Below, piece after piece: positions 27,236 to 42,912 of a stretch of 64,000 bases of DNA. Each line of letters starts with the position of its first letter. Position 1 is the first letter of the stretch. A program made the translations under genes and the position numbers. The DNA comes from Alphaproteobacteria bacterium (lineage in GTDB: Bacteria > Pseudomonadota > Alphaproteobacteria > JACZXZ01): NCBI GenBank assembly GCA_035625915.1, contig DASPOR010000117.1, positions 3,700-67,699 on the forward strand, read 5' to 3'. The notes under the pieces are model-generated. The model searched no databases. It had not been told where the DNA came from and saw only the letters and a list, made by a program, of their open reading frames with translations.

Positions 27236-27401
27236 CTCGTGTGGTGGATTTGAAGTTCCTGTCATTCTGGTGGTACGCGCGTTTAGGAACTTCAAATCCG
27301 AATACCACACTCGATACAACATATTACGGGTGTGGCTTTGAATCCGAAATTCGCTCACGGTCCCGCACCTGATGTGGCGAATTTCGCATTCGTCACACTA
27401 G
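27236..27401 (-). repeat. MITE-like two-hairpin interspersed repeat, copy 2 (inverted orientation)
   Basis: Reverse-complement match to copies 1, 3 and 4 over its full length. Its terminal CTAG contains the pgi stop codon. The other end lies 15 bp from the mutL ATG. Confidence 0.8.
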
Positions 27402-28819
27402 ACGTTTTTTGCCGCGAGGTAACTGCGCGCCCGGCGCTTGCCGTCCTCGACGGCGGGCTGATCGTAAGGATTCACGTCCAACAAGTCGGCAGCGATGATA
27501 ACCTCGAACATATAGTGCATGAGCAGCGCCCCAAGCGATCGTTCATCGATTGTGTCGAGGGCAATGACGCGGGCCGGCCGCCCCGCAGCGACAAGCGTGT
27601 CGTGGGTCGCACGCTGCTCCGCGGAAAGGAGGTCACCCATGGTACGGCCGGCGAGATAGTCGAGGCGCCCGTCCGCCGCCAGGTCGTGCGGAATTCGTCG
27701 ACCCTTGCCCTCCTCCGCCGCGACAATGAGCGTGAACATCTTATCGGCTGGACCGTCAAGATAGAGCTGGAGCTGGCTATGCTGATCGACTGTGCCGAGG
27801 GCACGCGCAGGTGTCATGCCTTTGCCGTTCTTGCCCAGGCTTTCCGACCAGAGCTGGCGGAACCACATGCCGAAGGCCGCCAACCTGTCCACGTAGGGCA
27901 TGATTACGGTCGTCGAAAGTCCGTGATTGTTCTGAAGCGCCACCGTGATCGCGGCACCGACCGCTGGTGCAAAGTGCGCCGGCGTCGATGCGGCGAGCAT
28001 CGATTTGACAATCGGCACCGCTCCCTCTCGCACGGCGGCGATGTCGACGCCAGCGACCCGCGCTGGCAAGAGGCCCACCAGCGAAAGGACCGAAAAACGC
28101 CCGCCAATCTCCCGATCGTGATCCAGCACGGTAATTCCGAAACGCTCGGCCAACCGACGCATAGGGTTGTCGCCGGGCTCGGTGATCACCGTGAAGTGAC
28201 GGCCGGCATCTTTTTCACCCACCGCCTCTCGCAGTCCCGCGAGGCACACGAGGAATTGCGCCACCGTTTCGGGTGTGCCGCCCGATTTCGAGATGGCAAG
28301 AAATCCGGTACGCCGCAGGCCGACCGAACCGAAGAGGCCTTCGAACCGCTCGGGATCGATGTTGTCCAGGAAGTGGAGGCGTGGCGCCCCGGGCGGGGGG
28401 CCGAAGCCTTGATCGACTAGGGCAGCAAGCGAATGTCCGCCGAGGCTCGACCCGCCGGTGCCGAGGACCACAAGCTCGCTGAACGACGCGCGCAGACGCT
28501 GAGCATGCGTTTCGATGAGCGCCAGGTCGTCGCGGGTTTCGGGTAGCCGGAGAATTGGAAAGCCATCGGCATACTGCGCGCGCAAACGCTCAAGTACCGG
28601 AGCGGTCGCTGAGAGGGCGGCGGTGTACTCCGCTTCGGAAAGGCCACGGCGGCCGATTCGAGTCTCGAAGCATGCGTCGGCAATCTGCCGGTAGGCGACT
28701 CCGTGAATACCGCCGGGAAAATCAAGCCGAGGGATTGCGCTCGTCCCCAGCGCCGCAATCGGCGACGCGGCAGGTCGGGGTTTTTTCAGCTCAGTTCTCG
28801 AGCGCCGCCGATGATTCAA
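27398..28819 (-). CDS. pgi: glucose-6-phosphate isomerase (short bacterial form)
   Basis: SIS-domain motifs (LGTGGSSLG; SKSGGTPET; GGRFSVLSLVGLL) of the PGI family. N-terminal start is uncertain. Confidence 0.7.
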   Translation of the reverse strand: MNHRRRSRTELKKPRPAASPIAALGTSAIPRLDFPGGIHGVAYRQIADACFETRIGRRGLSEAEYTAALSATAPVLERLRAQYADGFPILRLPETRDDLALIETHAQRLRASFSELVVLGTGGSSLGGHSLAALVDQGFGPPPGAPRLHFLDNIDPERFEGLFGSVGLRRTGFLAISKSGGTPETVAQFLVCLAGLREAVGEKDAGRHFTVITEPGDNPMRRLAERFGITVLDHDREIGGRFSVLSLVGLLPARVAGVDIAAVREGAVPIVKSMLAASTPAHFAPAVGAAITVALQNNHGLSTTVIMPYVDRLAAFGMWFRQLWSESLGKNGKGMTPARALGTVDQHSQLQLYLDGPADKMFTLIVAAEEGKGRRIPHDLAADGRLDYLAGRTMGDLLSAEQRATHDTLVAAGRPARVIALDTIDERSLGALLMHYMFEVIIAADLLDVNPYDQPAVEDGKRRARSYLAAKNV

Positions 28820-28962
28820 ACCAGACCTCTCAAATTGTGCGGCGGCATTGGCGGGCCGACGCGCTCAGCACCGCGGTGTAGCTCTCACAGAAGCGCATGC
28901 GAAATCGAGACTCGGCCCTTAGCCGCGTCCCGCAACGATTTCTGGCGGCACCCTGCCGCCGC

Positions 28963-39844: not shown

Positions 39845-40125
39845 GACGGGCCTCTATCAGGGACGGCTTTAATGCGGGCGCACGCTCGGGCACCTTGCCA
39901 TCCATGTTGGCGCCCTTGGGCTTTAGAATGCTCGCGCCGATAAATGCACAAAGCCCTTCCGCGAACAAGAGAAGGTTGTTGGCCTCGACGTGGCGGCGGC
40001 AAGGGGGCAACCTTGTCGCTGGGCGGCCGTCGTTCTCATTGACACTACCCCTTGACCCTCCTATCTCTGCAGCGGGTGTGCGCCGCAAGGTGCCCCGTAT
40101 TTTATGCGTCTTCGAGGTCCGTCCC

Positions 40126-42912
40126 ATGTTCGGCGCCATCGCCCGGCGGCTGCTCGGCACCGCCAACGATCGTTTTCTGAGGAGCCTTCAGCCTCATGTC
40201 GACAGGATCAATGCGCTCGAAGCCGAGCTCGAGAAACTTCCGGATGCCGAACTAAAGGCGCGCACGGATCTTCTGAGAGGCCGTCTCGCCGACGGCGAGC
40301 AGCTCGACGATGTGCTGCATGAGGCCTTCGCGACGGTGCGCGAGGCCGCCAAGCGAACTTTGGGCCAGCGCCATTTCGACGTGCAGCTCCTAGGCGGCAT
40401 GGTGCTCCACAAGGGCATGATCGCGGAGATGAAGACGGGCGAAGGCAAGACGCTCGTCGCTACACTTGCGGCCTACCTGAACGCGCTCGCCGGCGAGGGC
40501 GTTCACATCGTCACGGTTAACGATTATTTGGCCCGGCGCGACGCCGAATGGATGGGACAAATTTATCGCTTCCTCGGCCTATCGGTCGGCGTCATCGTGC
40601 ACGGGCTGTCCGACGAGGACCGCCGACTTTCCTATGGCGCCGACATCACCTATGGCACCAACAACGAGTTTGGCTTCGACTATCTGCGCGACAATATGAA
40701 GTACCGGCTCGAAGACATGGTGCAGCGCCCATTCAGCTTCGCGATCGTCGACGAGGTCGACAGCATCCTGATCGACGAAGCGCGCACGCCGCTCATCATC
40801 TCCGGGCCGGCGGAAGACAGTTCCGAGCTGTACATCAAGGTCAATGCCCTGATCCCGGAACTCCAGCCCGACGACTACGAAAAGGACGAAAAGGCGCGCC
40901 AGGTCACCCTGACCGAGCAGGGTGTCAACCATATCGAGGAGCTGACGCGCGCCCAGGGCCTGCTCAAGTCAGGCGGCCTCTATGACGTCGTGAACATTGC
41001 AATTCTTCACCATGTTGGCCAGGCCCTCCGTGCCCACAAGCTCTTCCAGCGCGACACCGACTACATTGTCAAGGGCGGCAAGGTCGTCATCATCGACGAA
41101 TTCACTGGGCGGATGATGGAGGGTCGGCGCTATTCGGAGGGCCTGCACCAGGCGCTCGAGGCGAAGGAGGCTGTCGAGGTCCAGACCGAAAACCAGACCC
41201 TCGCGTCGATCACGTTTCAAAATTATTTCCGTATGTACCCCAAGCTTGCCGGCATGACGGGTACCGCTATGACGGAAGCCGAAGAGCTTGGCGACATTTA
41301 CAAGCTCGAGGTGATCGAAGTTCCGACCAACGTTCCGGTCGTCCGCAAGGACTGGGATGACGAGGTTTATCGCACCGCGCGCGAAAAGAACGACTCCATC
41401 GTCGCTTTCATCGAGGAGGCGCGGGCGAAGGAGCAGCCCGTTCTGGTCGGCACCGTCTCCATAGAGAAGTCCGAGCTGCTTTCCGAACTCCTCAAGAAGC
41501 GCAAGATACCGCATCAGGTGCTCAATGCGCGCTACCACGAGCAAGAGGCGTTCATCATCGCGCAAGCAGGCCGGCCGGGTGCAGTTACGATCGCGACTAA
41601 CATGGCGGGCCGCGGGACCGACATCCAGCTGGGCGGCAACGTCGAGATGCGCGTGAAGCAGGAGCTCGCCAATATCGAGGAGCCGCAAGCGCGGCAATCG
41701 AAAGAAGCCGATATTCGTGCTGAGGTCGCCAAGTTCCGAGAGGTGGTCGTCGGGGCGGGCGGCCTTCTGGTGGTCGGCACGGAGCGTCACGAGAGTAGGC
41801 GTATCGATAACCAGTTGCGCGGCCGGTCGGGCCGCCAGGGCGACCCGGGTGCATCGAAGTTCTTCCTTTCGCTCGAGGACGACCTGATGCGCATTTTCGG
41901 CTCCGAACGCATGGACGGCATGCTCCAGAAACTTGGCCTGAAGGAAGGCGAAGCGATCACTCATCCATGGATCAACAAGGCCCTCGAAAAGGCGCAGCAG
42001 AAGGTCGAGGCGCGCAACTTCGATATCCGTAAGAACCTGCTGAAGTTCGACGACGTGATGAACGACCAGCGCAAGGCGATCTATGAACAACGGCGCGAAT
42101 TGATGCACCAGGACGAAGTCGCGGCGACGGTCGAGGAAATGCGCCAGGACGTGGTGCACGACATCGTCACCAAATCCATTCCAGAGCATTCCTATCCCGA
42201 GCAATGGAACACGGCGGCCGTGCATGACGACTGCATGCGCATTTTCGACCTTGACCTGCCGATCGTGGAGTGGGCGAAGGAAGAAGGTATTGGGGAGTCG
42301 ACGATCACCGAGCGTATCGAGAAGGCCGCAGCGTCCAAGATGGCTGAGAAGGTCGGCAAATATGGGCCAGAGATCATGCGCATGGCCGAGAAAAGTATCC
42401 TTCTTCAGCTATTCGACCAGGTGTGGAAGGAGCATCTCTTGGCGCTCGACCACTTGCGGCAAGCGATCGGGCTGCGCGCTTATGGCCAGCGCGATCCTCT
42501 GATCGAATATAAGCGCGAGGCCTTTTCTGCATTCGGGGATATGCTGCATCGCTTGCGCGAGACGGTGACGGGCGTTCTCTGCCATCTCGAGCTGCGCGTC
42601 CAAACGCCCGAAGCCTTGATGCCGCGCACACCGCAACCGCGCGATATGCACGAACAGCATGACGAGATGTCCATGTTCGGCGAACCAGCACCAGCAGGTG
42701 ACGGCGACGCCGGCCTGATGCCCGGTCCTGTATTGCGCGGTCCGGCCACGGGTCCGAACGATCCGCCACCCGTGCCCGGCATGGTGTGGTTTGCGCCGGG
42801 CGGGCGCTGGATCAATCCAAACGACACGAGTACCTGGGGCAAGGTCCCACGAAATGCGCCTTGTCCCTGCGGCTCGGGCAAGAAGCATAAGCATTGCCAC
42901 GGGAAGGCCTAG
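40126..42912 (+). CDS. secA: preprotein translocase ATPase SecA
   Basis: Full-length SecA: DEAD motor ([13 protein letters not shown]), preprotein cross-linking domain, and a C-terminal zinc finger ([14 protein letters not shown]). The start is taken at [11 protein letters not shown]. The stop TAG lies inside the CTAG terminus of repeat copy 4. Confidence 0.95.

Follow-up and report, generated by a model that had tools for sequence, protein, structure and literature searches.

The stretch of DNA which we analysed (called the window below) comprises 64,000 nucleotides of contig DASPOR010000117.1 from the alphaproteobacterial assembly GCA_035625915.1 and contains an intergenic palindromic repeat that is bounded mostly by the tetranucleotide CTAG. 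By repeat finding, alignment, and searches with a hidden Markov model (HMM) four full copies and one degenerate half copy of this repeat were located (Table 1). Three of the full copies are fused to the end of a gene: the terminal CTAG of copy 2 holds the stop codon of pgi, that of copy 3 the stop codon of a gene for a MutT-type hydrolase (called mutT below), and that of copy 4 the stop codon of secA. The initial annotation of this DNA had placed the TAG codons of these three genes inside the ends of the repeat and had stated that three of the four full copies supply the stop codon of a gene. Both statements are correct; the coordinates are exact, and the open reading frames and the protein families were checked. 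The source organism is an uncultured alphaproteobacterium. The MutT protein of the window is 99% identical to a protein of a metagenome-assembled genome labelled "Alphaproteobacteria bacterium", and its more distant matches include proteins labelled Stellaceae. Among the matches listed there is no genome locus nearly identical to the window.

A full copy of the repeat is a dimer of ∼166 nt (160–171 nt) consisting of two related hairpin modules of ∼77 nt, each bounded by CTAGTG...CACTAG, and a linker of 13 nt between them (TAATATGTTGTAT). The consensus of module A is CTAGTGTGGC-GAATCCGAAATTCGC...GCGAATTTCGGATTC-AAA-GCCACACTAG and the consensus of module B is CTAGTGYGGT-ATTC-GGATTTGAAGTTCC...GGAACTTCAAATCC-ACCACACTAG. 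Our module model is an nhmmer profile which was iterated from A modules and converged at 78 positions. As this profile also detects the B modules, both module types are homologous. Terminal inverted repeats of ∼25 nt, which start with CTAGTG, are found at the outer ends (CTAGTGTGGCGAATCCGAAATTC and, for the reverse-complemented right end, CTAGTGTGGTGGATTTGAAGTTC), and this pattern is kept over 110 dimers. With regard to size and coding capacity the dimers correspond to MITEs (transposable elements of the miniature inverted-repeat type, about 100–400 bp), being small, non-coding, and intergenic. In the window and the genome loci CTAG is found at 329 of ∼520 module ends, and the remaining ends are mostly variants that differ by one base (GTAG occurs at seven ends). 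When copy 3 is folded as RNA, it forms two hairpins with a free energy of -89 kcal/mol (z = -11) and loops of ∼25 nt, the stop codon being part of the paired foot of the first stem. According to RNAalifold, 41 of 47 base pairs show compensatory changes across the 110 dimers, the terminal pairs included. We found no sigma-70 consensus promoter around copy 3, no terminator-like site between positions 36800 and 37300, and no U-tract following the stems. A scan of the whole window against Rfam at the gathering thresholds gave no hit; the sole match of copy 3 in a permissive scan, a miRNA hairpin at E = 0.09, was dismissed as chance.

The fusion of the repeat to stop codons is not confined to the window. 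Two samples were surveyed: the first consists of the window and at least 120 genome loci (one genome per species, scanned with the stem pattern of module B), and the second, independent of the first, consists of at least 116 soil-metagenome loci fetched with a module-A pattern of the type found in the window. For each array terminus the distance to the stop codon of any gene reading towards this terminus was recorded as the offset. In the first sample the terminus lies exactly on the stop codon of a converging gene in 20 of 129 arrays (17 of 124 outside the window), and in the second sample this is the case in 33 of 134 arrays, in 27 of 109 arrays after repeated sites had been de-duplicated, and in 15 of the 60 arrays with more than 300 nt on both flanks. 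Any other offset is occupied by at most four arrays. Compared to a uniform spread over the offsets -100 to +30, the spike at offset 0 has a probability of 4e-25 in the first and 1e-49 in the second sample. The initial annotation had proposed to tabulate the distances between repeat termini and stop codons, and this tabulation, carried out family-wide, thus bears out the enrichment in both samples. The pooled share of copies at stop codons is 47 of 238 or 19.7%. Compared to this rate of ∼20%, the three of four copies in the window (p about 0.025) are an enriched sample on the lucky side of the family rate. The fusion to stop codons as such is real and statistically solid.

Relatives without the element allow a comparison of occupied and empty sites. 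The closest relative that we recovered is represented by the loci L121 and L122, whose MutT is 86% identical to that of the window and whose gene order is the same as in the window (accA-secA-rotamase-argJ-mutT-CHASE2 cyclase-...-pgi-mutL). The element is absent from all three sites in L121/L122, and no module was detected in any of seven syntenic loci. In L121 8 nt lie between the stop codons of secA and accA, 11 nt between pgi and mutL, and 101 nt between mutT and the cyclase gene. The gap between pgi and mutL measures 176 nt in the window and is larger than in the relative because of the insertion of copy 2. At the end of secA the relative reads ...HCHGKV TAG (GTT TAG G) and the window ...HCHGKA TAG; at the end of mutT the two sequences are ...LRELL TAG (CTT TAG C) and ...LQELL TAG, and at the end of pgi they are ...SAKKA TAG (GCA TAG T) and ...AAKNV TAG, respectively. 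Altogether, a native TAG is present at the same codon in seven of eight comparisons with element-free relatives. The stop codon of mutT is TAG in four distinct element-free relatives, with an unoccupied CTC TAG CC in L126/L127. The stop codon of secA is TAG in L121 and L126 and TGA in L124, and that of pgi is TAG at the same codon in L121. The empty site thus contains a single (N)TAG and the filled site reads CTAG-element-CTAG, and in the window the homologous downstream sequence restarts directly past the element. As the element-free relatives carry TAG at the same codon, the insertions are specific to the lineage of the window and captured a TAG that was already there. The question raised in the initial annotation, whether the native codon had been captured or another codon displaced, is therefore answered in favor of capture of the target site.

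Two observations on these relatives may be added. Directly after the mutT stop codon of L121 (positions 10457-10530), where the window has the element, short tandem repeats with units similar to GGCACCCCGTCTGC are found. In the more distant relative L124 (positions 300-4300) the synteny of secA and accA is broken by GIY-YIG, IS1595-type, and IS3-type transposase genes downstream of secA. TAG is in general a frequent stop codon in these sequences; among the crude gene calls it closes 16 of 53 genes of the window and 225 of 812 genes of the loci. Of the nine genes crudely called between positions 32003 and 44041 of the window, eight have TAG as the stop codon (amidase, cyclase, mutT, argJ, rotamase, secA, accA, and pgi nearby). 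The TAG stop codons of mutT, secA, pgi, and accA are common to the window and the closest relative, and therefore the bias towards TAG is older than the insertions.

Table 1. Repeat copies and adjoining genes of the window, and tandem arrays with a shared CTAG in other loci (L numbers)
Feature	Positions	Strand	Remarks
Copy 1	13239..13405	+	Full dimer (module A, 13-nt linker, module B); left end CCAG, right end CTAG
mutL	25347..27221	-	Downstream of pgi
Copy 2	27236..27401	-	Full dimer; terminal CTAG 27398-27401 holds the pgi stop; other end CTCG
pgi, glucose-6-phosphate isomerase (NCBIfam)	27398..28819	-	TAG is the complement of 27398-27400, inside ...CACACTAG
Copy 3	36960..37125	+	Full dimer; all four module ends CTAG; terminal CTAG 37122-37125 holds the mutT stop
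Nudix/MutT-type hydrolase	37122..37577	-	TAG is the complement of 37122-37124; score under the MutT equivalog cut-offs
secA (SecA, 1279 bits)	39895..42912	+	TAG 42910-42912 inside CTAGTGTGG
Copy 4	42909..43075	+	Full dimer; left CTAG 42909-42912 holds the secA stop
accA	43085..44041	-	Convergent with secA; own TAG stop in the unoccupied CTAG 43085-43088, 9 nt past copy 4
Degenerate single module, A type	47250..47331	-	Without CTAG ends
Tandem array with shared CTAG	L038:6412-6740
Tandem array with shared CTAG	L048:111-438
Tandem array with shared CTAG	L060:4004-4333
Tandem array with shared CTAG	L064:1-291
Tandem array with shared CTAG	L111:448-686

The tetranucleotide CTAG is rare in this DNA, with 42 sites in the 64-kb window compared to 221 expected from the base composition. 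Outside of the elements 188 intergenic and 111 coding CTAGs and 51 CTAGs at stop codons were counted in the first sample, and 130, 82, and 24, respectively, in the second sample. If the element hits CTAGs at random and the insertions within genes are lost, 75 of 393 sites, i.e. 19.1%, are expected to be at stop codons. The observed share (47 of 238) does not differ from this value (Fisher p = 0.84). As the observed share equals the available share, a preference for CTAG, a rebuilt CTAG, and the loss of insertions within genes suffice to explain the data.

Thus, we suggest, with a probability of roughly 78%, that the repeat is a mobile element targeted to CTAG which captures native stop codons. 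It would be a non-autonomous element of the MITE type that inserts itself into CTAG tetranucleotides, after which both of its ends carry a CTAG. Since CTAG contains TAG on both strands, a sizeable fraction of the CTAGs outside coding sequence are stop codons preceded by C. An insertion at such a site would rebuild the stop codon and leave the protein unchanged, and would hence be tolerated, whereas insertions into CTAGs within genes would be lost by purifying selection. Target choice and purifying selection together would then give rise to the spike at offset 0, so that the fusion follows from how a site-specific mobile repeat ordinarily behaves. The initial annotation had considered an insertion preference for (C)TAG at the ends of genes. 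With regard to CTAG this holds true, given the sequence of the module ends and the native TAG at the empty sites, but a preference for the ends of genes is not seen, as the observed and the expected share are the same. Selection for elements that leave the reading frame unaltered, the other possibility put forward there, is needed only to remove the insertions within genes.

Several points weigh against this interpretation. Both samples consist of the matches listed, so that their sizes are lower bounds, and the survey covers the repeat family in the window and in other genomes and metagenomes rather than the source genome as a whole. The genes in the survey were called by a simple home-made program based on codon positions, which is crude. 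The empty sites of the nearest relative read TTAG, TTAG, and ATAG and not CTAG, which makes the exact sequence before the insertion in the lineage of the window uncertain. Moreover, the palindromic CTAG fits a duplication of 4 bp as well as a duplication of TA (with an element having the ends G...C) or an insertion 3′ of CTAG without any duplication. In ∼1.7 Mb of fetched loci, as opposed to whole genomes, there is no autonomous element with matching ends, which makes the transposase a conjecture. Finally, the end tetranucleotides within a module covary as base pairs; those that are not CTAG mostly complement each other, and the hairpin remains paired up to the outermost base. There are 28 compensated pairs other than CTAG, for example, CCAG...CTGG, CTCG...CGAG, and GTCG...CGAC (L053:7272-7436, L010:1424-1590, L016:3521-3687, and L097:3063-3231), whereas 2.7 are expected. 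Variants which form direct repeats are as frequent as expected by chance, both within a module (3 vs. 2.4) and at the outer ends of the dimers (2 vs. 1.3).

The two ends of a dimer are compensated independently of each other. Such compensated ends are not predicted if the ends are just target duplications; they require repair in place, selection for the hairpin, or a mechanism that reads the pairing. Template switching in quasi-palindromes, an established mutational process, is a candidate for such repair. Alternatively, the terminal CTAG could be a functional part of the hairpin which is read by pairing, either by a single-strand enzyme (of the HUH type or another one) whose target is set by the foot of the hairpin, or within a domesticated RNA or DNA structure that carries CcrM sites and is kept paired up to the stop codon. 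We regard this possibility as improbable.

As to the enzyme that would mobilise the CTAG-targeted element, our best guess is a DDE transposase which acts in trans and would duplicate TA, or the whole CTAG, within CTAG. We favor this type of enzyme because the outer 25 nt act as ordinary terminal inverted repeats and because there are precedents for targeting CTAG or TA. IS630 prefers TA within 5′-CTAG-3′ (Tenzen and Ohtsubo 1991, as cited in PMC2170065), the IS5-derived MITEPsy1 duplicates CTAG (PMC3189936), and IS711 duplicates TA in YTAR (PMC2266754). A search with an HMM of the outer 32 nt returned five and six solitary matches in two sets of loci, none of them flanking a transposase gene. 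A gene with a DUF4096 domain (IS5 type) in L124 was considered as part of the parent element and rejected, being without matching ends.

Mobilisation as a single strand by an HUH/Y1 enzyme, as in IS200/IS605 or RAYT-like systems, is an alternative which we consider rather unlikely, although several features are in agreement with it. In this case the element would insert 3′ of a CTAG that is read by pairing with the foot of the hairpin, no duplication would arise, and the right CTAG would belong to the element itself. At each end there is indeed a long hairpin with a stem that includes the terminal tetranucleotide, compensation of the ends other than CTAG is seen inside the modules and arises separately at either end of a dimer, the layout of two hairpins and a linker is similar to that of REP doublets and of the ends of IS200/IS605, and a DDE partner was not found. 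On the contrary, we came across no gene for Y1 or RAYT in the fetched loci (a search aimed at RAYT in whole genomes was not made), a conserved head of the GTAG type as in REP elements is missing, given the rarity of GTAG ends, and the outer 25 nt behave like ordinary terminal inverted repeats. In addition, no such enzyme is needed for the compensated ends, as template switching in quasi-palindromes can account for them.

The initial annotation had also suggested that the hairpins could act as transcriptional terminators or stabilise the mRNA, as proposed for REP and Correia elements. With the hairpins as terminators or as barriers which stabilise the upstream mRNA, the position at the stop codon would be due to selection for a function at the 3′ end. 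The two very stable RNA hairpins that start at the stop codon and the compensatory changes in both hairpins would suit such a role, as would the metagenome sample taken alone, in which 25% of the copies are at stop codons compared to 16% expected. Nevertheless, the shares are equal in the pooled data, and there is neither a U-tract nor any other pattern of an intrinsic terminator. The contexts of the arrays match the background: 54 arrays are located between co-directional, 23 between convergent, and 17 between divergent genes, compared to 596, 250, and 165 gene pairs, so that an excess at convergent genes is not seen. There is also no bias in orientation, as both module types occur next to the stop codon without clear preference (12 vs. 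7). Copy 2 is inserted between pgi and mutL, which are so close in the relative that they are probably co-transcribed, and a strong terminator at this place would be harmful. Furthermore, covariation of the arms is equally expected if both arms bind the same protein. The idea of a terminator or mRNA stabiliser is therefore not supported, and we judge selection for a 3′-end function to be unlikely.

The possibility that the element displaced or created the stop codon, so that its own TAG ends a shortened or lengthened protein, appears very improbable. A few open reading frames of the survey do run into an element and stop inside of it at offsets between +7 and +88. However, for all three genes of the window this reading was rejected, as the last residues and the position of the stop codon match those of the element-free relatives (HKHCHGK(A/V)*, IPVL(Q/R)ELL*, and YL(A/S)AK(N/K)(V/A)*). 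Coincidence in a compact genome is hardly credible: TAG is indeed a common stop codon here and three of four copies is only modestly unusual at a rate of 20%, but the spike at offset 0 in two independent samples excludes this explanation.

The remaining features of the window can be described briefly. Copy 1 does not abut any stop codon, the nearest converging one being 213 nt away. The CTCG end of copy 2 lies 14 nt upstream of the ATG of mutL (27221-27219). In copy 4 the inner ends (CTGG and CGAG) and the right end (CCAG) are decayed. The start of secA is uncertain, as the family match begins at residue 83. The CTAG containing the accA stop codon is followed by a second CTAG at position 43090, and both of these are unoccupied and lie 9–14 nt from the decayed CCAG end of copy 4 (region 43076-43093). 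The degenerate module is located ∼25 nt from the TAG stop codon of a gene at 47353-48357 on the minus strand.

Copies of the repeat run to hundreds across the Alphaproteobacteria, and the matches listed are from Xanthobacteraceae, Bradyrhizobium, Brucella/Ochrobactrum, Mesorhizobium, Hoeflea, Caulobacteraceae, Stellaceae, Rhodospirillaceae, Parvularculaceae, and other Alphaproteobacteria. In the first sample nhmmer detects at least 265 modules in at least 136 arrays, namely 115 dimers (with a linker of mostly 13 nt), 16 single modules, four tetramers, and one trimer. In the tetramers and in the trimer adjacent dimers or modules have a single CTAG in common (Table 1), as would result if one copy had been inserted into a CTAG at the end of another copy. 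The copies of the window are 77–86% identical over their full length to copies in distant genomes (e.g., window positions 36960-37125 compared to L032:6423-6598, L005, L050, and L093), whereas the best DNA matches of the flanking genes reach 65–72%. As judged from these sequence identities, the higher conservation of the element suggests strong constraint or horizontal spread.

One full dimer (L001:3524-3693) is found outside the Alphaproteobacteria, in a metagenome-assembled genome labelled Candidatus Marinimicrobia; this could be a contamination during binning or a case of horizontal transfer. In some loci pairs of single modules recur at a distance of 600–715 nt (L131:428-1294 and 5180-5932, L147:413-1279, and L214:9650-10516). 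The pairs in L131 flank ordinary small genes, one encoding a protein of 155 aa, which we take to resemble MmcB, and the other a response regulator of 191 aa; one of the modules supplies the stop codon of the enclosed gene. We considered whether module pairs ∼715 nt apart form an autonomous or cargo-carrying element and rejected this, as ordinary small genes are enclosed in L131 and the pairs recur in related soil contigs. The scan of a plasmid collection returned nine weak partial matches, which are uninformative, and the literature search with sequence strings of the element led to unrelated primer matches alone.

The element is of a known kind, a site-specific mobile repeat, and very likely belongs to a family that has already been described. 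By published description it probably corresponds to the CcrM-associated intergenic repeats (CIR), which are known from Caulobacter, Brucella, and further Alphaproteobacteria (Chen and Shapiro 2003, J Bacteriol 185:4997; for summaries see PMC2229807 and PMC10969869). According to these summaries the CIR elements have two long inverted-repeat arms and a linker as well as GANTC sites and TA at their termini, are strictly intergenic, and are conserved across the Alphaproteobacteria including Brucella. The present family likewise has copies in Caulobacteraceae and in Brucella/Ochrobactrum, where L014 and L052 contain single modules of 78 nt and L070 a dimer of 167 nt. In addition, GANTC, the site of CcrM, is enriched about fivefold in our repeat (1.6 per dimer vs. 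0.33 for the background). In 61 of the 110 dimers a GANTC overlaps the inner CTAG at the junction to the linker (e.g., TATGATTCTAG), and 26 of the 110 do not contain this site at all. In the window the GANTC sites are located in the arms of module A (GAATC and GATTC at 36967-36975 and 37013-37021) and not in the linker. There are also differences: the published length is ∼110 bp compared to ∼166 nt here (∼77 nt for single modules), the summary PMC2229807 (from 2007) gives a question mark for the target duplication and lists terminal inverted repeats as absent, and both summaries are without mention of CTAG as the target or of the capture of stop codons, on which the primary paper may differ.

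Also by description, the family is probably that of Bru-RS1 and Bru-RS2, palindromic repeats of Brucella that are hot spots for IS711 (Halling and Bricker 1994; PMC2266754, PMC3163539). These repeats are intergenic as well, and the preference for them of IS711, which duplicates TA in YTAR, fits repeats that are bounded by CTAG; their length is, however, 103–106 bp.

Among better known mobile repeats the MITEs inserting into TA or CTAG (RUP with IS630-Spn1, MITEPsy1 with ISPsy2, and Correia) are similar in that they are small and non-coding, have terminal inverted repeats, give rise to hairpin transcripts, and insert at TA or CTAG with a duplication. In contrast to these elements, each end of our repeat is a complete hairpin, so that the dimer has two hairpins instead of one stem running from end to end. 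Furthermore, the present family has no known parent insertion sequence, and it spans a bacterial class, with the identities between distant genomes given above, and not a single genus. REP/BIME elements and the REPINs, which are mobilised by RAYT transposases, are likewise extragenic palindromes that are often found just after genes, form inverted doublets with a linker, and have been proposed to stabilise the 3′ ends of mRNAs. REP elements carry a conserved head of the GTAG type, and we know of no defined target site or duplication for them. Our repeat, on the contrary, mostly has CTAG ends and is inserted site-specifically, and as already mentioned we did not notice any RAYT gene among the fetched loci.

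Only two aspects still deserve attention, namely the compensation of the hairpin ends and the mobilising enzyme. For the family as such, the proposed targeting of CTAG accounts for the fact that these repeats look as if welded to the ends of genes, and annotators and comparative genomicists should not read a function from this position. It also supplies what is missing from the accessible descriptions of CIR-type repeats, in that the target would be CTAG, the site would be rebuilt, and the copies would be lineage-specific insertions. In the Alphaproteobacteria a TAG stop codon that is preceded by C would be a hot spot for the insertion of these repeats. With each insertion a very stable predicted hairpin, which in many cases carries a CcrM site, comes to lie immediately after a gene or between genes, and this may affect the expression of operons.

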